Source of the DNA: Planctomycetota bacterium
Lineage (GTDB): Bacteria; Planctomycetota; UBA8742; UBA2392
NCBI GenBank assembly: GCA_020638635.1
Contig: JACKIE010000001.1
Location: 305,906 to 369,905, forward strand
Direction: 5' to 3'
DNA: 64,000 nt
The notes under the pieces are model-generated. The model was not told where the DNA came from. It did not search any database and worked only from the letters and a program-made list of their open reading frames with translations. How positions within the stretch are numbered: position 1 is the first letter of the stretch; every line of letters begins with the position of its first letter. The position numbers and the translations under genes were made by a program. Of this stretch, positions 19,637-54,061 are shown piece by piece.

Positions 19637-19729
19637 CGATTTTGGATTTTAGATTTTCGATTTTGGATTGGGCTGGATGGACGGGGCTGCTCCCCCCAAT
19701 CCGAAATCCAAAATCCTAAATCCAAAATC
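19637..19729. repeat. heptamer-array hairpin (GATTTTN)5
   Basis: Arm 19638-19672 is GATTTTG GATTTTA GATTTTC GATTTTG GATTGGG. Its inverted partner is 19695-19729. 31 of 35 positions are complementary. It fills the 95-bp spacer between two same-strand genes. Confidence 0.9.
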
Positions 19730-20211: not shown

Positions 20212-20228
20212 GGGAACTCTCGGTCGTC

Positions 20229-20297
20229 GGTTGCCAGTTGTCGGTTGTCAGTCACTGCGGTTTTCAGGCGCCGGCCGACAACTGACAACCGGCAACT
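20229..20297. repeat. heptamer-array hairpin (GTTGNCN)3
   Basis: Arm 20229-20251 (GGTTGCCAGTTGTCGGTTGTCAG) against 20275-20297. 19 of 23 positions are complementary. All 4 mismatches are A/G at the variable heptamer position. Confidence 0.85.
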
Positions 20298-20302
20298 GAG
20301 AA

Positions 20303-21412: not shown

Positions 21413-21496
21413 TTCAATTCAAAATTCAAAATGCAAAATTCAAAATCAGCCTGCCGGCGATGGCGGCATTTTGAATTTTGCATTTTTCATTTTGAA
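21413..21496. repeat. heptamer-array hairpin (CAAAATN)4
   Basis: Arm 21413-21446 (TTCAATTCAAAATTCAAAATGCAAAATTCAAAAT) against 21468-21496. 27 of 29 positions are complementary. Confidence 0.9.
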
Positions 21497-26617: not shown

Positions 26618-26798
26618 CTCGGCACCGGATGCCACTTGTAAAGGCGACTACTGGCTAACCACGACGGACCACCAAGAACCACGAAGGAGGGCTCTTGTCG
26701 GTCAATGGCTGTATTCTGTGCGGTTGAAATTCAGCCTGGAACCGTGTGGAGCGTCATGCCGCTGCGCCAGTCCAAAATCTAGAATCCCAAATCCCCAA

Positions 26799-27371
26799 TC
26801 ACCCCAATCCCCGCCGGTCCCGCTGCCCGCGTTCATCCGTCCCGATGCCCATCACGGCGTCGGCCTGTTCGCGCGTCATCGCAGGTCGGTATGGCTGCGG
26901 CGGCAACTCGCCCCGGGCCCGCAGCACGAAGTCGCGGGCCCATTGACGTGTAAAGACCCGGCTGTGCTGGTTGTGCTTCAACTCGATCTTCAGCCCCTGC
27001 TGCACGATCCGCGCGCCGCACTCGACCAGGCGCTCCTCGATCAGCTCGATCGCGCGCCCGAAGTTGCGGTAGGCGCGGTCGCAGCCCACGAACGCGGCCG
27101 CCGGGACGCCATCGAGTTTGCGCCGGGGAACCAGCAGTTCAAGCATGCCGCGGTCAAACGGCAGCCAATCGCCGTGGTGCTCGCCGTCGCCCCAGGTGGG
27201 CTCGCCCAGCAGGATCGCCTGCGCCTCCAGCAGGATTGACGCGTCAAGACCGTAGGCGTTGTAGCTGTCCACGCTCGCGCCGGCTGACTCGGCGCCCTCG
27301 GCGGCCAGCTCGGCCGTCTCACGGGTATTGCCGCCCGTGCTGGCGTATACGATCACCAGCTTCAGGCTCAT
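26799..27371 (-). CDS. flavodoxin-like protein with C-terminal extension
   Basis: KLVIVYASTGGNTRETAE FMN-phosphate loop and LLGEPTWGDGE. ATGA overlap with the upstream PAS gene. Confidence 0.75.
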   Translation of the reverse strand: MSLKLVIVYASTGGNTRETAELAAEGAESAGASVDSYNAYGLDASILLEAQAILLGEPTWGDGEHHGDWLPFDRGMLELLVPRRKLDGVPAAAFVGCDRAYRNFGRAIELIEERLVECGARIVQQGLKIELKHNQHSRVFTRQWARDFVLRARGELPPQPYRPAMTREQADAVMGIGTDERGQRDRRGLG

Positions 27372-29048: not shown

Positions 29049-30914
29049 TTAGCCGCGCGAGGATTTAAGCCACACGCGCAGCACCGTCAGATCCGCCGGG
29101 CCGATCCCCGGGATGCGCGCCGCCTGCCCCAGCGTGCGCGGCCCCACGCGCGCCAGCTTCTCGCGCGCCTCTTTGCGCAGCGGCTCAATGCCCGCGTAAC
29201 GCAGGCCCTGCGGCAACTTGAAATCCTCCAGCTCGCGCATGCGCGCGACCTCGGCGTCTTCACGGTCCATGTAGCCCGCGTAGCGCGCGTCGATTTCCAG
29301 CGTATCCACGGCCTCGGGGTCCAGCGCGTCGAGTTGCGGCAGGAGCGCGCGCACCCTGGACCACTCGAAGTTCGGCGTGCGCAGCCAGTCATAAAGGCTC
29401 TTGCCCTCGTGGCGCCTGGCGCGCAGCAGAGCCTCGCCGCGGTCGTAGGCCTCCTGCTTGTCGTCGAAGCGCTCGCGACGCGCGGCATCCACGCAGCCCA
29501 GCGTGATGCCCAGCGGCGTCAGGCGGCGGTCGGCGTTGTCCGTGCGCAGGCGCAGGCGGTACTCGGCCAGGCTGGTGAACATGCGGTAGGGCTCGTCGGT
29601 GCCGCGCGTGGTCAGGTCGTCGATCAGCACGCCGATGTAGGCCTGGTCGCGCCGCAGCACCACGGGTTCGCGCCCGGCCAGGCTCAGCGCCGCGTTCAGT
29701 CCTGCCATCAGGCCCTGGGCGCCGGCTTCCTCGTATCCGGTCGTCCCGTTGATCTGGCCGGCGAGGTACAGCCCGCGCACCAGCTTGGTCTCCAGCGTGC
29801 TGTGCACCTGGGTGGGCGGCACGAAGTCGTACTCGACCGCATAGCCGTACTTCAGGATGCGCGCGCGCTCAAGCCCCGGGATGGTGCGCACCAGGGCGTC
29901 CTGCACGTCGCGCGGCATGCTGGTGCTGATGCCGTTGGGGTAGACCTCGTCGGTGTCCAGCCCCTCTGGCTCAAGGAATACGTGGTGGCTGCCGCGGTCG
30001 GGGAAGCGCTTGATCTTGTCCTCGATGCTGGGGCAATAACGCGGCCCCACGCCCACGATCTGTCCGCTGTAGAGCGGGCTGCGCGCCAGGTTGTCCGCGA
30101 TCACCTGGTGAGTGGCCTCGGTCGTGCGCGTGATGTAACAGCTCACCTGTTGGCCGGTGATGGCCGAAGTCAGGAACGAGAACGGCCGTGGGGGCTCGTC
30201 CCCCTTCTGCTCTTCCACCCTTAACCAGTCAATACTTGACCCGTCAAGGCGCGGCGGCGTGCCTGTTTTCAGGCGCCCGGTACGGAAGCCCAGCGCCTTC
30301 AGCTGCTCGGAAAGGCCGTAGCTGGCTTTTTCGCCCGCGCGCCCGCCGGCGATCTTGTCTTCGCCGTAGTGCAGCAGCCCGCCCAGGAAGGTGCCGGTGG
30401 TAAGCACCACGCGCGGCGCGCGGAGTTCACGGCCGTCGGCGAGGGCGACGCCGGAGACCGCCAGTCCCGTGTCCCGCGTCCCGTGTCCCGTGTCGCAGTT
30501 ACTGACCCGGGACGCGGGACTCGGCACTCGGGACGTCGTCAGCCCGACTGCTTCTCCCTCAACGATCGTCAGCCCGCTCGCGCCCTCGCACATCGCCTGG
30601 GCCGCGCGCTGGTACGCGGCCTTGTCGGCTTGCGCGCGGGGCGAGATCACCGCCGCGCCCTTGCTGGTGTTCAGCATGCGGAACTGGATGCCGGCGTTGT
30701 CGATCAGCCGCCCCATGGCGCCGCCCAGGGCGTCGATCTCGCGCACGATCTGCCCCTTGGCCACGCCGCCAATGGCCGGGTTGCAAGACATGCGCCCAAT
30801 GCCGTCGCGGGTGAAGGTAAGCAGGCAAACCGAAGCCCCCAGCCGCGCCGCCGCCAAAGCGGCCTCAATCCCGGCATGCCCCCCACCCACCACGATGACG
30901 TCGAACTGTATCAT
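29049..30914 (-). CDS. mnmG: tRNA uridine 5-carboxymethylaminomethyl modification enzyme MnmG (GidA)
   Basis: [46 protein letters not shown] and [12 protein letters not shown] motifs. It contains a ~21-aa insert, see findings. Confidence 0.95.
30464..30535. repeat. heptamer-array hairpin (GTCCCGN)4 inside the mnmG coding sequence
   Basis: Arm 30464-30492 (GTCCCGT GTCCCGC GTCCCGT GTCCCGT G) against 30507-30535. 24 of 29 positions are complementary, with a ~14-nt loop. Confidence 0.8.
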
Positions 30915-30926
30915 CCCGGGACTCGA

Positions 30927-31235
30927 TCACGCGCCACCAAGCCTGCTCCTCAGCCACTCCTCAACATCTCGCGCACCATGGACTGTGCCGATGAAGATCA
31001 GACTGCTGTCACGCAATGCGTAGAAGAGCCTGAATCTGAATCGCCTGATGATGGCTTGTCGAACTTCACCTTGGACTACAGGGTACGCGCGCGGATTCGC
31101 GACGATGACGTTCAGCGCCGACGCAAGATCAGCGGTGAACTTGCCGCCGAGTCCGGGTGCGCGAGAATTGAACCACGTGACCGCTTCGCGGACATCTTCG
31201 TAAAACTCCGGAAGAAAGATGATCGGCAGGCTCAC
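30927..31235 (-). CDS. ParE/RelE-family toxin
   Basis: GTG start overlapping the antitoxin stop (GTGA). IFLPEFYEDVREAVTWF...RRFRFRLFYALRDSSLIFIGTVHGARD is a typical ParE-like fold pattern. Confidence 0.7.
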   Translation of the reverse strand: MSLPIIFLPEFYEDVREAVTWFNSRAPGLGGKFTADLASALNVIVANPRAYPVVQGEVRQAIIRRFRFRLFYALRDSSLIFIGTVHGARDVEEWLRSRLGGA

Positions 31236-31453
31236 CGCAATTCCCGAAGCCGTCTCATCATTTCGTCGTGCGAGATCCCCTTGGACGGGTCTGCGTCGAA
31301 CTTCGCCAACCGCCGTTCCATTTCGTCCAGCACTGCTTTCGAAACCGGAACCGCGTTTTCCTCGGCCAGCGTGTCCCAGATCTGCTCGATCAGGGCAATG
31401 CGCTGCGCCGGGGTCAGCTTGCGGATGGCGTCCATGTCGATCGTCTGGGCCAT
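31232..31453 (-). CDS. addiction-module antitoxin component
   Basis: MAQTIDMDAIRKLTPAQRIALIEQIWDTLAEE. 73 aa, translationally coupled to the toxin. Confidence 0.65.
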   Translation of the reverse strand: MAQTIDMDAIRKLTPAQRIALIEQIWDTLAEENAVPVSKAVLDEMERRLAKFDADPSKGISHDEMMRRLRELR

Positions 31454-31556
31454 GGCAACAGCATACCACACGGCCGCGACATGGCAGGGGGTTGTGCCGG
31501 TTTCGCGCGCCGTTGGGACTGGCAGAACCGGGCGCTGCGCCCTATGCTTCCGGCCC

Positions 31557-32573
31557 ATGAACCTTGAGTTGATCGCCTACCTGAAGAAGCAGTCCCAGTT
31601 CACGCCCCTGCCCGAGCTTGAAGATAAGCTCGAACTCGGGCGCGACCAGCTGTTCTCGGACGTCGAAGCCCTGATCGAAGAAGGCTACTCCATCGAGTTC
31701 CACCCCTACCTGGGCGTCAAGCTGCTCGACATCCCCGACCGCCTGCTCAAGCACGAAATCCGCGACGACCTCAACACCAAGCACGTCGGCCGCAAACTCC
31801 AGATCTTCGACCAGGTCTCCAGCACCAACGAAACCGCCTGGGAACTCATTGAGGCCGATCCCAAGCTCAAGGACGGCACCGTCGTGCTGGCCGAGTCGCA
31901 GACCCGCGGCAGAGGCCGCATGGGGCGCGAATGGCACTCGGCTAAGGGCGCCGGGCTGTGGCTTTCGGTGGTGCTGAAGACCTCCGTGCCGCCCGACAAG
32001 CTGGCGTTTCTGACCAGCGGCGCGGCGCTGGCGATCGCCAACATGCTGCAGCAGTTCATCCACCTGCCCGCCGAGATCAAGTGGCCCAACGACATCATGA
32101 TCCGCGGCCGCAAGGTGTGCGGCATCCTGGTCGAGGCGCGCAGCAACCAGCCGGATGTCTACGTGCTGGGCATCGGCATGAACGTGAACCAGGCGCGCAC
32201 GGACTTCCCCGAAAGCCTGCGCGAGACGGCCACCAGCCTGCGCCTCGAGCGCCCGGGCGCGCGCACCCTGAACCGCGTGCGGGTGCTGCGCCCGCTGCTG
32301 TTCTACCTCGAGCGCGTCTACCTGCAGATCAAGAAGAAGAAGTGGGAACGCCTGGCCGAGGCGTGGTCCGAGTTCGTGCACATGGGCGGCAAACAGATCA
32401 GCCTTGAGCAGGGCGGCCAGGAGTTCAAGGGCAGGGTTGTAAAGATTCACCCCAGCGACGGCATCACGCTGAAGCTGGCGGGCGACGAACAGCGCACCTT
32501 CGCCGCCGAGAGCGTGACCAACGTGCGCGAGCTGCCCGCGGAAGAGCCCGAGCCCGAACAGGTCGAGCCATGA
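31557..32573 (+). CDS. birA: bifunctional biotin--[acetyl-CoA-carboxylase] ligase / repressor
   Basis: Only the last 338 aa of the 734-aa ORF are used. N-terminal winged-helix, then catalytic motifs QTRGRGRMGREW and KWPNDI. Confidence 0.88.
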   Translation: MNLELIAYLKKQSQFTPLPELEDKLELGRDQLFSDVEALIEEGYSIEFHPYLGVKLLDIPDRLLKHEIRDDLNTKHVGRKLQIFDQVSSTNETAWELIEADPKLKDGTVVLAESQTRGRGRMGREWHSAKGAGLWLSVVLKTSVPPDKLAFLTSGAALAIANMLQQFIHLPAEIKWPNDIMIRGRKVCGILVEARSNQPDVYVLGIGMNVNQARTDFPESLRETATSLRLERPGARTLNRVRVLRPLLFYLERVYLQIKKKKWERLAEAWSEFVHMGGKQISLEQGGQEFKGRVVKIHPSDGITLKLAGDEQRTFAAESVTNVRELPAEEPEPEQVEP

Positions 32574-36493: not shown

Positions 36494-36567
36494 GGCTGCT
36501 GGCTGTTGGCTGTTAGCCGTTGGCTGTTAGCTAACAGCCAATAACTAGTAGCTAATAGCTAGCAGCC
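36494..36567. repeat. heptamer-array hairpin (GGCTGTT-type), loopless palindrome centre at 36530/36531
   Basis: 37-nt arms. 29 of 37 positions are complementary, and all 8 mismatches are transitions. Confidence 0.9.
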
Positions 36568-36572
36568 AACCC

Positions 36573-38950: not shown

Positions 38951-39038
38951 GTGAACAAGAGCCCGGAGCGCAAGCGACGGGTTGACGCGCATTTGGTTAA
39001 CGGGCTCCCGGTCGCTTGCGCTCCCGGCTCCTGTTCAC
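38951..39038. repeat. long imperfect intergenic hairpin
   Basis: Arm 38951-38981 (GTGAACAAGAGCCCGGAGCGCAAGCGACGGG) against 39007-39038. 28 of 31 positions are complementary. The right arm overlaps the dxr stop codon. Confidence 0.85.
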
Positions 39039-49328: not shown

Positions 49329-49353
49329 CCGTTCCTGTTTCGTACTGCAGCCT

Positions 49354-49425
49354 CGCGCAGAGACCGCAGAGGGCGCAGAGAGTGGCAAAACCGCAGTTCT
49401 CTGCGCCCTCTGCGTACTCTGCGCG
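49354..49425. repeat. nonamer-array hairpin (GCGCAGAGN)3 in a divergent promoter region
   Basis: Arm 49354-49382 (CGCGCAGAGACCGCAGAGGGCGCAGAGAG) against 49399-49425. 25 of 27 positions are complementary. Confidence 0.9.
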
Positions 49426-49507
49426 GGACTGCTTTTGTAGCTTCCCTAAAACCTACAACGCGGAACCTAAAACCTGTATCCTGCATCACTTGTTGGCTGT
49501 CAAGCTT

Positions 49508-52342
49508 ATGACGCGAAAGCACCTCCTGGCCACCCTTCCCGTTCTCGCCCTGCTGTTGTTAGCGGGCGCCTGGGCAGTCTTGCGGCCGGAGGGTTCTTCC
49601 CTGCTCCCCATTATCGGGACCAGCGACCAGAAGTCATCGGGCAAGCAGAAAGAAACTCCGCTGACCGAGGTTCCGCCGCAACTGGACGACAGCGGCAACC
49701 CCGTAGCCGAGACCCCCCCCGCCAACACCGAAGGCCTGCTGCCGGGCATCGATGAGTCCGAGCAGGAGCGAATCAAGCAGGCCCGCGAAGAAGCGCGCAT
49801 CCGCGCCGAGCAGGAGGCCGCCCAGGCGGACACGGAATCAAAGCCCAGCCCGCAAGGGCTGGGTAATCCGAAAGCGACCGACCAGGCCGGCAACGAAACC
49901 CAGCCAGACACCCGAACACCCGAACAGAAGGCCAAAGACGCCGAGCGCCAGCGCCGCATTGACGAACTGAAGGCGATCAAGCGCCCGCCCAACCAGAGCC
50001 TGGGCAACGTGCGGCCGCGCACGCGCAAGCTGGAAAAAGAGGCGGGCAAGAAGGAGCTGTCCGAGATCAGCCCCAAGCTGATGCAGGACAGGCGCGGCCT
50101 GTACGCGAAGTACTACGCTTTCAGCCAGTTGCCGCTCAACGCGCTGCTGGACCCGGACCAGCCCGAACTGGCCCAGCGCACGCCCGAAATCACGCGCATT
50201 GACCCGCAGGTGTACTTCCCCAGCAAGGACGCCTGGGCCGACCTGCCCTTCGACAAGCGCAACTTCATGGGCGTGTGGGAGGGCTTCCTGGTGATCAAGG
50301 AGGCCGGCGATTACTGGCTGTATTTAGGCGCCGACTACACCGGCGTGGTGACGCTGGACGGCGAAAGCGTGCTGTACAACGACATGCGCGACTACACCGA
50401 GGTCAGCACCGTGCTGACCTTGACGGCCGGTTTGCACCCGATCCGCATCGATTACATGGAGGGCGAAAACGGCAGCCCGGTTGATCCGCTGGCAGCCTGC
50501 AACTTCATGTACGTACCGGAGGGGCAGAGCAAGCCGATCCCGGTGCCGCCGGAAATGCTGATGTTGCCGGAGGCGCTCTGGAGCGACAACGCGCCGATCA
50601 TTACCAAGCTCAGCAGGTATGAGGGTGAGATCGGCGACGAGATCACGATTTTCGGCCAGAACCTCGACGGCGACACAAGCCCCGCAATGTCGGTGAAGCT
50701 GGAGGACTTGCCAAAGCTGCCGCCTCTGATCCGGGTTCAGATCGCCGGACAGGCCGCGGCGATTCTTGAGCACAGCGACACTTCGCTGAAGGTTCGCATC
50801 TCGGTCGGTGCAACAACCGGCAAAGTGATCGTGTTCAAGGCGACCGCAGCGGGCGGTGGCGGAAGTTTCGGGAGCATTCAACCGGAGTACGCGAACGCCG
50901 TTCCGTCAAACTCAGTGGACTTCACTGTCACCACGCAGTACGGCCTGTTCGCTTCATGGCACAACCTGGCTGGCTGGTCGAACTACGACTTCATTGACGA
51001 CACGCTGCACAAGCCTGACGTGGTGCGGCTTGAGCGCGACTTCATGTTCGAGACTCGCGCGGACATCGACCTTGGCTTCCGCAACAACCCGCTGGCCTGC
51101 CACTGGGAAGGCAAGCTCGGCATCCCGGCCGGCTGGGTGCCCGAGGGCCAGATGGCGCTGGTGCGCTTCCAGACCTACGGCCGCCTGCGCGTGAGGCTGG
51201 GCGAGCAAATGCGCGAGACGGCCGCGCAAACCGGCGGCACGTTCAACCTGACCACGCTCGACTTCGAAGTCAGCAACCGAGAGGAGCACTACCTGCCCCT
51301 CAGCATCGACTGGACCAGCGAGACCGGCCCGGCCGGGCTCAAGATCGTGAAGATGGTCAGCGTGCCCGCGGAGAAGAACCCCGAAGGCGGCTCCGGCATC
51401 GCCTGGGCGGAAGACAGCGTGCTGCCCTTCCAACTGTTCTTCCCGCCCGTTGTGCCGCCCAAGCCGCCGCGCATTGTGAGCGCGAAGCCGCTCTTCGCCG
51501 AGGGCGAGCAGCCGCCGATCCTGCCCTACGACATCACCACCACGCGGCCGTCGATCCGCGAAGGCCAGTTGTTCGAGTTCAACCTGGAGGTGTTCGGCAA
51601 CGCCGAGGTGCTGGCGGCGCCGGTTAACCTCACCGTGGACGGCGTGCCGCTGGAGTACACGGTCACGCAGACCGAAACCGGCAACGGCGGCGGCATGATC
51701 CGCACTTGCCAGGCCGTGCTGCCGAGCGGCCTGGGCGAGGGGGCCATCGTCGCGCGCCTGACCGTGGTGACCAGCGAGCCCTTCTACATTGATGTCCAGA
51801 ACAAAGGTCTGATCGCCTACTACTACGACCTGCCCAACCCGGGCGGCTACACGCAGATGCCCGACCCGGAACCCCTGGCCTGCTTCCAGGTGCGCAAAGA
51901 CGCCTGGGTGAACTTCGAAAACGCCAACCAGTTCGACCTGCCCTTCCCGGCCGAGACCTTTGCCGTGGAGTGGTTCGGCGCGCTGATCATCGAGACCGAG
52001 GGCGACTACCGCTTCACCTGTCGCAGCGACGACGGGATCCTGGTGTGGCTCGATGACAACCTGGTGCTGGCCGACGACAACCTGCACTACCAGCGCGAGA
52101 AGACCGGCGACTGGGTGCACCTGGTGCCCGGGACATACAACTTCCGGATGCAATTCTTCGAGAACAACGTGCACGAGGTGTGCGTGCTGCAGTGGGACGC
52201 GCGCACGGACAAAGAGCAGGCCGAGAGCGAGTTCATCCAGCGCGGCATCATTCCCAAGCGCCACTTCACCTGGGACCAGCACCCGGCCCTGCCCCAGAAG
52301 ACCAGCACCGGCAAACGCGCCGACGGCTCGGACCCCGAGTAG
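49508..52342 (+). CDS. large secreted/anchored protein with two PA14-like domains and an IPT/TIG-like domain
   Basis: Start at MTRKHLLATLPVLALLLLAGAWAVL. PA14-like GVWEGFLVIKEAGDYWLYLGADY... and FAVEWFGALIIETEGDYRFTCRSDDGILVWLDD. IPT-like PIITKLSRYEGEIGDEITIFGQNL. Confidence 0.75.
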   Translation: MTRKHLLATLPVLALLLLAGAWAVLRPEGSSLLPIIGTSDQKSSGKQKETPLTEVPPQLDDSGNPVAETPPANTEGLLPGIDESEQERIKQAREEARIRAEQEAAQADTESKPSPQGLGNPKATDQAGNETQPDTRTPEQKAKDAERQRRIDELKAIKRPPNQSLGNVRPRTRKLEKEAGKKELSEISPKLMQDRRGLYAKYYAFSQLPLNALLDPDQPELAQRTPEITRIDPQVYFPSKDAWADLPFDKRNFMGVWEGFLVIKEAGDYWLYLGADYTGVVTLDGESVLYNDMRDYTEVSTVLTLTAGLHPIRIDYMEGENGSPVDPLAACNFMYVPEGQSKPIPVPPEMLMLPEALWSDNAPIITKLSRYEGEIGDEITIFGQNLDGDTSPAMSVKLEDLPKLPPLIRVQIAGQAAAILEHSDTSLKVRISVGATTGKVIVFKATAAGGGGSFGSIQPEYANAVPSNSVDFTVTTQYGLFASWHNLAGWSNYDFIDDTLHKPDVVRLERDFMFETRADIDLGFRNNPLACHWEGKLGIPAGWVPEGQMALVRFQTYGRLRVRLGEQMRETAAQTGGTFNLTTLDFEVSNREEHYLPLSIDWTSETGPAGLKIVKMVSVPAEKNPEGGSGIAWAEDSVLPFQLFFPPVVPPKPPRIVSAKPLFAEGEQPPILPYDITTTRPSIREGQLFEFNLEVFGNAEVLAAPVNLTVDGVPLEYTVTQTETGNGGGMIRTCQAVLPSGLGEGAIVARLTVVTSEPFYIDVQNKGLIAYYYDLPNPGGYTQMPDPEPLACFQVRKDAWVNFENANQFDLPFPAETFAVEWFGALIIETEGDYRFTCRSDDGILVWLDDNLVLADDNLHYQREKTGDWVHLVPGTYNFRMQFFENNVHEVCVLQWDARTDKEQAESEFIQRGIIPKRHFTWDQHPALPQKTSTGKRADGSDPE

Positions 52343-52397
52343 GGGCGGCCCCATGTGGCCGCCCTGGTCCGCCCGGGCCGCCACATGGGGCGGCCCC
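52342..52397. terminator. bidirectional GC-rich hairpin between convergent genes
   Basis: GGGGCGGCCCCATGTGGCC ... GGCCGCCACATGGGGCGGCCCC occupies the entire 54-nt spacer. Confidence 0.6.
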
Positions 52398-54061
52398 TAC
52401 CGCGGCAATCGCAGCTCGGCCGGGTGGTCGGCGTCGTGGAACAGAGTTACCTCGACATCCAGCGCCTTGGCCTTGTCGTAGTGGTCCGCGCCGGTGTGGC
52501 TGTTGAGCTCGTACCGTGGGCTGTTGCCGCCGGTGACGATCAGCTTCAGCTTGTGGTCTTGTCGCCAGGAGTAGGCGTGGGGCGCGAGCTTCAGCGTGAG
52601 GCTGTAGGTCTCGCCGGGCTTGAGTTCCTGCACCGTCTTGCCGTCGCGCAGCTTGGCGCGCTGGATGGTCTCCCCCACCAGGTACAGTTTGCCGTCCGGG
52701 GCCTCGTCGCACAGACGCAGGTGGATGTCCGTGTCCACACGGTTGCAACTGAAGTACACGGTCAGCTCTACTTCGCCGCGGATCGCCAGCGGCTCGGCCA
52801 GCTTGTCGGTGGCATAAACCAGCACGTCCTTGCGGCCGGCGATCTTGGAAATCTCCTTGGGCCCGTGGGTCAGGGGTGGCAGGTTTCGGCCGCCGATGGC
52901 GGGAGAGGGATCTTTCGGGTCAAACTTGTATTGACGTGTCAGTGGTTGTTCTTCGCTTGCGGTACAGGGCTTGTTGGTGCTGAGGACGCCGTCCGCATTG
53001 AGGTAGTAACTGGTGTGCTTACCCGCCAGCTTCTGCCAGCTTTCCGCGCCGTGCCACTTGTTCTCGCCGCACTGGAAGGCGCTTACCACGGGCACGTCTT
53101 CCCACCCGCTGTCCTCAAGGCCGCGCAGGTAGTGGTCGAAGAACTTCAGAGTGATCTTCGTGGAGTAGTCTTCTGCCTCGGGGTACTTCAGGTCGCCTTG
53201 CTCACTGACATCAATGGCCGTGTGCGACCAGGGGCCCATCACCAGCTTGCTCTCCTTGGCCTTACCCGTGCCCTGGCTTAGCAGGTCCGCGTGCTGCTGG
53301 ATCACTTCGCGCGGGTAGTTGTCCCACCAGCCGCTGATCAGCAGGCAGGGCACGTTGATCTTCTCCGGGTGATAGCTCTGGCTCAACGCGAAGGTCCAGA
53401 GCCGCGTACCGGGCAGGGGGTTATCGGTCACGAACTTGCTCACGCCGAATCCCAGCCGGTCAAGGCTCTTGGTGTGGGCTTCCAGCTGCACGCCGCCTTC
53501 ATAGTAGCTTTCGTAGCGGTTTCCCTGGTAGGCGATCAGCGGCGCGCAGCACACCAGGTGCGGCGGCTGCTCGGCGGCCGTGTCGAACTGCTGCTTGCCC
53601 AGCGCCGAGCCGCCCCAGGTGCCGACCTTGCCATCGCACCAGGGCTGGGTGGCGCACCACTCGACGCAGTCGTAGCCGTCCTGGCCGCGCTTCCACTTCA
53701 GGCGGTTTACGCCCTCCATGGCGGCCTTGCTGCCGTAGAAGCCGCGCCAGTCCACGAACACGTAGGCGTAGTGCTCGCGGTCGAACTGCGACCAGGCCTT
53801 GTCGCTGCCGCGGCCGACCTCGCTGGTCTTGTCGCCGTACTCGCGGCCCATGCGGTCCTTGTCGTAGGGCGTCTGTACCAGGATGCAGGGGTACTTGCCG
53901 CGCTTTTCGGGCAGCAGCACGTTGGCGGCCAGTGTCTTGCCGTCGCGCATGGGAATGGCGACGTCGGTCAAGGTGGTCCGCCAGGGGTCTTCGGCGTCGT
54001 CGTCTGCGATCACGAACGGCGCCAAGGCAAGCAGCAGCAGACAGGCGGCAATCAGGCGCAT
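52397..54061 (-). CDS. CocE/NonD-family (S15 X-Pro dipeptidyl-peptidase-like) hydrolase
   Basis: Start at MRLIAACLLLLALAPFVIADD behind an AGGAG RBS. Family-typical PYDKD and VDWRGFYGS segments. C-terminal beta-sandwich domain. Confidence 0.8.
   Translation of the reverse strand: MRLIAACLLLLALAPFVIADDDAEDPWRTTLTDVAIPMRDGKTLAANVLLPEKRGKYPCILVQTPYDKDRMGREYGDKTSEVGRGSDKAWSQFDREHYAYVFVDWRGFYGSKAAMEGVNRLKWKRGQDGYDCVEWCATQPWCDGKVGTWGGSALGKQQFDTAAEQPPHLVCCAPLIAYQGNRYESYYEGGVQLEAHTKSLDRLGFGVSKFVTDNPLPGTRLWTFALSQSYHPEKINVPCLLISGWWDNYPREVIQQHADLLSQGTGKAKESKLVMGPWSHTAIDVSEQGDLKYPEAEDYSTKITLKFFDHYLRGLEDSGWEDVPVVSAFQCGENKWHGAESWQKLAGKHTSYYLNADGVLSTNKPCTASEEQPLTRQYKFDPKDPSPAIGGRNLPPLTHGPKEISKIAGRKDVLVYATDKLAEPLAIRGEVELTVYFSCNRVDTDIHLRLCDEAPDGKLYLVGETIQRAKLRDGKTVQELKPGETYSLTLKLAPHAYSWRQDHKLKLIVTGGNSPRYELNSHTGADHYDKAKALDVEVTLFHDADHPAELRLPR

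Follow-up and report, generated by a model that had tools for sequence, protein, structure and literature searches.

How an element of a kind that normally fills the spacers between genes can stand, in frame, inside a conserved gene, and what exactly is conserved there, is the question raised by mnmG (gidA) in a 64,000-nt stretch of DNA from an uncultured planctomycete (assembly GCA_020638635.1, contig JACKIE010000001.1, positions 305,906 to 369,905; the whole of this stretch is called the window). Within this gene lies a palindrome, the two arms of which are tandem arrays of a 7-nt unit, GTCCCGN. An earlier note made from the letters of the window alone (the original prediction) proposed that an intergenic-type structured element had landed, or arisen, in an essential coding region with preservation of the frame, and that the locus offered a natural experiment on the origin of such elements. 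The comparisons presented here indicate that the palindrome is probably one member, translated and in frame, of a class of heptamer-array hairpins restricted to this lineage and maintained as nucleic acid, with arrays generated by slippage and fold-back copying.

A heptamer-array hairpin within the mnmG reading frame

The host open reading frame (ORF) encodes MnmG: its product is similar over the full length to the E. coli, Aquifex, and Chlorobium proteins of solved structure (phmmer, E ~1e-178), and its AlphaFold model matches the fold of solved MnmG structures with TM scores of 0.88-0.90. The gene is highly conserved, yet dispensable in E. coli; hence, the earlier description of the coding region as essential was overstated.

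The palindrome itself is recovered by an arm search, by a repeat finder, and by folding. It comprises 71 bases (30464-30534), with arms of 31 nt that are paired at 26 of 31 positions (84%) and stand 9 nt apart; the stem is built of 6-bp blocks with one mismatch every 7 nt. In particular, Tandem Repeats Finder resolves the two arms as (GTCCCGT) x4.4 and its inverse x4.6, with a period of 7. The figures given earlier (24 of 29 positions paired and a loop of ~14 nt) describe the same structure in another register, and the 27 residues then translated from it agree with the ORF translation. Folded as RNA of the mRNA strand, the hairpin reaches -58 kcal/mol against a mean of -38.8 for dinucleotide shuffles (z = -5.72), with none of 200 shuffles as good; folded as DNA, it gives z = -3.6. 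On the coding strand, the 3' arm carries four GGG tracts spaced 4 nt apart (the complement unit being NCGGGAC) and, judged by sequence only, would be capable of forming a G-quadruplex. Features of an intrinsic terminator are missing at the hairpin, which has no T-tail and receives no call in a consensus scan, and the window contains no Rfam match at gathering score, only sub-threshold, miRNA-like matches to generic hairpins. The hairpin is not an assembly artefact: independent assemblies with a protein identity of 93% (L001, P0002, and P0003) also contain it, and hairpins at the mnmG site were recovered independently from short-read, long-read, and Logan assemblies.

In the protein, the phmmer alignment with E. 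coli MnmG places exactly 21 additional residues at the hairpin, in agreement with the earlier estimate of about 21. The RAQxD and GTF motifs are 63 aa apart in 36 of the 37 MnmG loci from outside the planctomycetes and 84 aa apart in MnmG of the window; the sole non-planctomycete locus off this rule, L069 (Ga0247727_10024384), carries 75 low-complexity residues inserted in that region of the protein. Moreover, six close relatives with 77-79% identity (P0013-16, P0019, and P0032) have the short ancestral β-turn, which comprises 5 residues as against 26. The insert is lineage-specific, as had been anticipated: it is absent from other phyla and from these six relatives, and no homologous segment of the same length was found in distant phyla. 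The net gain of 21 aa equals 63 nt, i.e., nine heptamers (9 x 7). In the AlphaFold model, strands 122-129 and 151-158 flank the insert, pLDDT is below 50 for residues 133-146, and the insert is predicted to form the disordered tip of a surface β-hairpin of the FAD-binding domain.

The reading frame is kept in every clade locus found by tblastn. Because a perfect heptamer array reads as one and the same cyclic peptide of 7 residues whichever frame is used, a stop codon present in the unit is unavoidable. Six of the types found in mnmG are stop-free in both arms; GATTCAA, GGCGTGA, and GGGCTGA, which also occur in mnmG, would yield TGA at codon 6-7, and their arrays are broken exactly there. Furthermore, six of the nine types that are exclusively intergenic contain stops, and these are never found in mnmG. 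The mnmG hairpin thus appears, from its frame and its composition, to be read through by the ribosome, which would add 21 residues to the protein. Since the frame has to be preserved, the coding context filters the heptamers, revealing which of them are possible and showing selection on nucleotides rather than on the peptide.

A side feature of the site is an exact 11-nt direct repeat, TCGTCAGCCCG (coding strand CGGGCTGACGA; GLT is encoded twice), at 30536-30546 and 30566-30576. The first copy lies directly 5' of the hairpin and the other 30 nt upstream in mnmG; the repeat may be due to chance or may be the trace of a small duplication.

Table 1. Positions of mnmG, of its hairpin, and of the intergenic heptamer-array hairpins in the window.
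Feature	Positions	Strand	Description or basis
mnmG (gidA) coding sequence, hairpin host	29049..30914	minus	621 aa; ORF list, phmmer, AlphaFold fold match
Variable segment, codons 127-152	30459..30536	minus	26 residues; alignments, pLDDT
5' arm of mnmG hairpin	30504..30534	minus	mRNA strand: GTCCCGA GTGCCGA GTCCCGC GTCCCGG GTC
Loop of mnmG hairpin	30495..30503	minus	9 nt; RNAfold pairs a few further bases within
3' arm of mnmG hairpin	30464..30494	minus	mRNA strand: GAC ACGGGAC ACGGGAC GCGGGAC ACGGGAC
(GATTTTG)n-loop-(CAAAATC)n hairpin	19638..19729		fills Flavin_Reduct / CoA_binding_2 spacer
GTTGCCR/GTTGTCR (GTTGYCR) hairpin	20218..20301		between Ala racemase and Flavin_Reduct
(TTCAAAA)n..(TTTTGAA)n hairpin	21418..21496		upstream of Ala racemase
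GGCTGTT-type hairpin	36494..36569		between two co-directional minus-strand genes

Intergenic relatives and alleles of the mnmG hairpin

The mnmG hairpin shares its architecture with four other hairpins of the window (Table 1), each of which fills the spacer between two co-directional genes; in this respect, the term intergenic-type element was well chosen. Hairpins of this kind are restricted to the clade: 310 kb of its DNA yielded 62 long hairpins, of which 30 have period-7 arms, and 709 kb of other bacterial DNA yielded 53, of which 1 has such arms (Fisher p = 2e-9). The upstream stop codon is followed after 0-9 nt by the intergenic copy, and most copies end within ~20 nt of the next ATG. 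Their mismatches sit in the variable phase of the heptamer, with a modal spacing of 7. None of the intergenic heptamer hairpins matches an Rfam family or resembles an intrinsic terminator. Among the ~300 genes of clade DNA, mnmG alone has an internal heptamer hairpin; a metagenome scan contributed only two further clade loci.

The class extends to a phage. The viral contig L101 (IMGVR_UViG_3300037843_000663) is a 14.2-kb head-morphogenesis module with 65% G+C that encodes TerL, portal, protease, capsid, and adaptors, and almost all of its intergenic spacers contain heptamer- or octamer-array hairpins, of which (AGGAGTT)n is present at no fewer than seven. AGGAGTT, the dominant unit of this contig, includes the core of the Shine-Dalgarno sequence, and the partner unit AACTCCT is similar to the anti-Shine-Dalgarno sequence; a second viral contig, L102, has hairpins of the same type.

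At the mnmG site, at least ten heptamer types occur, i.e., GTCCCGN and at least nine others in relatives. They include GATTTTG (L002, L004, and L054), which is also the type of the window hairpin at 19638-19729, GGGAATC (L051, L052, and L095), GATTGYG (L096), GATTCAA (L094), GGCGGCA (L093), GGCGTGA (L006), and GGGCTGA (L099, a planctomycete with only 56% identity). Decayed or half-deleted remnants are found in L005, L050, and L098. When 15 mnmG alleles were folded, 11 gave z values from -3.5 to -9.3 with none of 200 shuffles as good, and the remaining 4, which are decayed, folded no better than shuffles. The peptides encoded by different alleles are unrelated to each other. In a set of 75 MnmG proteins from more distant planctomycetes, loop lengths at this site lie between the ancestral 12 residues and 48, and many of these loops are 7-residue periodic, palindrome-type peptides, as expected of heptamer arrays. 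The site therefore seems, to judge from the aligned sequences, to have been occupied since early in Planctomycetota, with repeated type change, decay, and loss. The notion of an element landing in a coding region stands insofar as the hairpin lies in frame at a tolerated surface turn; on the other hand, it is not a recent landing in the lineage of the window. As a natural experiment, the locus is a better case than was first stated.

Two ideas concerning the origin of alleles were not retained. The possibility that loops remain homologous while arms change was dropped, as the shared 7-9-mers are no more than multiple testing gives. Native 'seed' units at the junctions have suggestive cases, none of them statistically secure: GGATTGC in the empty allele of L097 is the unit of L096, and GGGCTGA occurs upstream of the array of L099.

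The GATTTTG arms of L002 and L004 are identical at 60 of 62 positions (31/31 in the 5' arm and 29/31 in the 3' arm), including the odd units GATTCTG and GATTTTC. In the same comparison, 4-fold degenerate sites are saturated (53% identical), the flanks are 70-77% identical, and the loop is 68% identical; under a background identity of 75%, the probability of such arm identity is at most 4e-6. Similarly, four lineages in which synonymous sites are saturated have one and the same 5' arm in the hairpin between Ala racemase and Flavin_Reduct, with loops that are unalignable. Protein-level selection cannot account for the absence of synonymous change in the arms, and the conserved entity is apparently a nucleic-acid hairpin, the arms of which are kept and the loops of which are free to change. 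Compensatory covariation is almost absent (1 of 25 pairs among four GTCCCG-type alleles) and is uninformative either way.

Hairpins of other designs are also present in the window. One spacer (14774-15010) harbors a nested double hairpin with outer arms that are 9-mer arrays, (CGCGAAGRT)3 versus (TCGCGWCCT)3, and inner arms that are 8-mer arrays, (CACGAAAA)n versus (TTTTCGTG)n; with -117 kcal/mol and z = -8.6, it has the architecture of the heptamer hairpins with other unit lengths. Another hairpin with 9-mer-array arms (CGCAGAGNN) is located at 49347-49432, just upstream of the start of a minus-strand gene. Long, non-periodic hairpins with arms of 26-34 nt, 85-93% paired, occupy short spacers at 16026-16120, 38951-39038, and 52339-52400; the last lies between convergent genes and is terminator-like, though without a T-run.

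Turnover of the hairpins and candidate explanations

Heptamer types are distributed patchily on a tree built without the insert. L050 and L051 are 99% identical over 21.8 kb, but the insert and ~25 nt of its 5' flank are wholly different, and the replaced flank carries synonymous changes. Besides the mnmG insert, the only dense cluster of differences between these two is a hypervariable segment of ~290 nt in a PA14/TIG-domain gene (L050 17277-17568). In L052, where the site is filled, and L053, where it is empty, the differences are concentrated in ~1.2 kb around the insert, and the downstream sequence is 99.6% identical. Presence or absence of the hairpin in near-identical strains is thus spread by tracts of homologous recombination rather than by fresh insertion. 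Moreover, hairpins are lost by deletion: L100, the sister of L095, has an empty mnmG site, its neighboring spacer hairpins are also gone, and in one spacer only the 5' arm is left after a 47-nt deletion. Both L098 and L100 are without heptamer hairpins at several orthologous spacers, which measure 9-33 nt instead of 80-135 nt as in their sisters, and their mnmG sites are empty or half-deleted; this joint loss suggests a genome-wide factor that controls hairpin load.

Hairpins at orthologous sites may also differ in polarity. In two cases, the related types are inverted in polarity and only one mismatch apart: in mnmG, GTCCCGA..TCGGGAC of the window corresponds to TCGGGAA..TTCCCGA of L052, and upstream of Ala racemase, TTCAAAA..TTTTGAA of the window corresponds to GATTTTG..CAAAATC of L054 and L097.

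In the explanation that we consider probable, the hairpins have a common design, in which a short loop free of constraint separates two convergent arrays, each of about four 7-nt units; their usual place, in the planctomycete clade and in a phage of similar G+C, is the stop-to-start spacer. Replication slippage in steps of 7 nt would grow and refresh the arrays, fold-back (template-switch) copying would build the opposite arm, and arrays would now and then be overwritten from other copies in the same genome. Short homologous-recombination tracts shuffle the mnmG alleles between lineages. The intergenic copies may work as RNA, by protecting 3' ends or by coupling translation; the mnmG copy would have no role in MnmG chemistry, and its 21-residue peptide would be a by-product of read-through.

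Several points weigh against this explanation. Slippage and fold-back as generators are inferred rather than directly evidenced. Heptamers recur at unrelated sites (GATTTTG at 4-5 sites; AGGAGTT in the seven or more phage spacers mentioned above), which requires copying between sites or a shared template, so that growth in situ alone is insufficient. For the GTCCCGN type, in turn, no second copy was found in the window, among protein representatives, or in viral contigs: a phmmer search with the 32-aa insert against 1.84 billion representatives returned only two unrelated repeat proteins and no GTCCCGN-type insert elsewhere, and scans of viral contigs for GTCCCGN and GGGAATC hairpins gave no match. 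A word-indexed protein search with three joined insert peptides returned nothing usable, the index probably being insensitive to short peptides. Finally, arm conservation beyond neutrality implies selection or active maintenance, and the mnmG copy could therefore be functional. Recurrence of types and arm conservation together lend support to both mobile-element and functional-structure explanations.

It is also possible, if doubtful, that in Planctomycetota and in at least one phage of similar G+C an active, structure-directed process writes, maintains, and overwrites heptamer-array hairpins at fixed positions, the arms being kept by nucleotide-level selection or active correction and the mnmG copy being functional or actively maintained. 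Templated synthesis of heptamers, or gene conversion from one hairpin to another, could underlie such a process. The phylum-wide allelic series at mnmG would then record its successive steps, namely birth, polarity inversion, type switch, decay, and deletion.

A non-autonomous mobile element of the REP (repetitive extragenic palindrome), MITE (miniature transposable element with inverted repeats), or Rickettsia palindromic kind, served by a transposase that recognizes hairpins, is an unlikely alternative. Here, the different types would represent repeated insertions or hairpin-targeted replacements, and the occurrence of one heptamer type at unrelated sites and in different genomes would be readily understood. 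The same holds for four lineages in which mnmG and a nearby spacer carry one type (L054, L052/L053, L095, and L096), for the phage contig, where two of the AGGAGTT hairpins have nearly identical loops, and for the replacement of whole spacers between genomes that are ~91% identical in DNA, the window and L054, which differ in heptamer type at 3 of 4 orthologous hairpin sites. However, neither conserved termini nor terminal inverted repeats outside the arrays were seen, and the filled-versus-empty pairs L052/L053 and L095/L100 show no clear target-site duplication of the MITE type, junctions within periodic arrays being ambiguous. Copies of one type mostly have unrelated loops and unit counts, the many heptamer types would require as many cognate enzymes, and no transposase was noticed in the Pfam annotations of syntenic loci or in the 10 window ORFs scanned. 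Comparable arrays in Xanthomonas are likewise not tied to insertion sequences (PMC4692102).

It is less likely still that the hairpin is a cis-acting RNA or DNA structure selected for mnmG itself, e.g., a translational pause between folding units, an RNase target, or a G-quadruplex/hairpin switch, with a merely tolerated peptide. Arms kept far beyond saturated synonymous sites beside a drifting loop are what such a structure would leave behind, and occupation of the site across a phylum, near-perfect hairpins in many lineages, and the four GGG tracts of the coding-strand 3' arm are in keeping with it. Nevertheless, six close relatives are empty and four further hairpins are decayed with z near 0, sequence is unconserved between types, identical elements occupy ordinary spacers, and covariation amounts to the single pair noted above. 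An ordinary variable protein loop with coincidentally palindromic DNA, or an assembly artefact, is scarcely credible: the loop does vary between 12 and 48 residues in Planctomycetota, but 11 of the 15 folded alleles are significant hairpins with period-7 arms despite unrelated peptides, none of 200 shuffles folds as well, the arms lack synonymous changes that protein-level selection would permit, and three independent kinds of assembly contain such hairpins.

The value of the site lies in a single, fixed, frame-constrained position within a universally alignable gene, at which dozens of lineages display every state (empty, fresh, decayed, switched, and inverted). This makes testable how the arrays originate, why they consist of 7-nt units with about four per array, and what conserves the arms.

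Around mnmG, a putative addiction-module antitoxin (PF09720; 31232-31558) and an adjoining small ORF without a Pfam match (together 30927-31558, minus strand) are located between a BirA-like gene and mnmG. The pair is missing from most syntenic relatives; L053 has a PF09720 gene. As to a link with the replication origin, mnmG often adjoins oriC; no GC-skew switch was found in the window.

Relation to known heptamer arrays and translated palindromes

The closest precedent of the mnmG hairpin is provided by the inverted heptamer pairs of Xanthomonas. Xanthomonas campestris and X. axonopodis carry (GGGAATC)n / (GGGANTN)n arrays, mostly of four units, with 70-75 convergent, stem-loop-capable pairs per genome; ~90% of the arrays are intergenic near the end of the upstream ORF, and 7-11% are intragenic (Rehm et al. 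2015, PMC4692102). Their positions are conserved between species, their length and sequence are variable, and they show no association with insertion sequences (PMC4692102). Polymerase slippage has been proposed as the cause of the surplus of heptamer repeats in bacteria (PMC4692102, PMC4679880). The mnmG hairpin shares with these pairs the tandem 7-nt units (4.4 and 4.6 copies) and the two convergent arrays, here 9 nt apart. Although the unit of the window, GTCCCGN, differs from the GGGANTN consensus, relatives carry true GGGAATC arrays at the same site, where GGGAATC is itself an mnmG allele (L051, L052, and L095). Placement near the 3' end of an upstream ORF applies to the other copies in the window but not to the intragenic mnmG copy. 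Furthermore, the Xanthomonas arrays form one G-rich family that has been read as G-quadruplex-forming, whereas at least 13 types occur here, many of them without G-tracts (e.g., GATTTTG and GTTGTCA). From the Xanthomonas paper, which concerns another phylum, an allelic series in frame within a conserved gene, polarity inversion, and a contrast between arm and loop conservation are absent (PMC4692102). The window also contains a lone (AATCCCN) array without an inverted partner at the 3' end of a flavodoxin gene (26783-26812); the complement GGGGATT is the Nostoc repeat of PMC4692102 and is also present on phage contig L101 (11761-11790).

Direct arrays of 7-nt units are known from the cyanobacterial STRR repeats and from the TAACTGA repeats of Beggiatoaceae, which are intergenic and end a few nt before start codons; only one inverted case is described, and one heptamer dominates each genome (PMC4679880). 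The 3' arm of the GTTGTCA-type hairpin of the window is (CAACTGA)n, one base off the Beggiatoaceae unit.

Translation of a palindrome within a conserved gene has its model in the Rickettsia palindromic elements (RPE; Ogata et al. 2000, 2002), which are inserted in frame in housekeeping genes, at places tolerated by the fold, and are translated (PMC10969869). They form families of ~100-150 bp with conserved sequence and peptide, scattered over many genes (PMC10969869). The mnmG palindrome resembles RPE in its in-frame position within a conserved ORF at a tolerated surface site. It differs in its heptamer-array arms, its unconserved peptide, its restriction to a single site in one gene, and the repeated replacement of its sequence; nor did the window, the protein representatives, or the viral contigs yield a second GTCCCGN copy, as a multi-copy family of the RPE type would have. 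Long hairpin-forming inverted repeats within conserved coding sequences, with both arms translated, are also found in mitochondrial genes of Nematomorpha (PMC6649704). Those palindromes are mitochondrial, their arms encode conserved protein regions, and they are not heptamer arrays.

REP elements, BIMEs (bacterial interspersed mosaic elements), and REPINs (REP doublet-forming hairpins) have stems of 20-40 bp without tandem units, bear a GTAG or CGTC tag, and form conserved families with a cognate RAYT (PMC3733652). Like them, the class described here consists of multi-copy intergenic hairpins between co-directional genes; unlike them, the mnmG hairpin has neither a GTAG nor a CGTC tag at either end, and its stem is a tandem array. 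No RAYT (Y1 transposase) was noticed in the Pfam annotations and window ORFs mentioned above.

The mnmG site unites two precedents, the inverted heptamer pairs of Xanthomonas and the translated palindromes in housekeeping genes of Rickettsia. Full-text literature searches yielded no prior description of these hairpins in Planctomycetota. In comparison with the known systems, what appears to be new is the multitude of heptamer types in this phylum, their stop-to-start placement, the contrast between arm and loop conservation, and the polarity inversions, and above all the single in-frame site with its whole allelic series.

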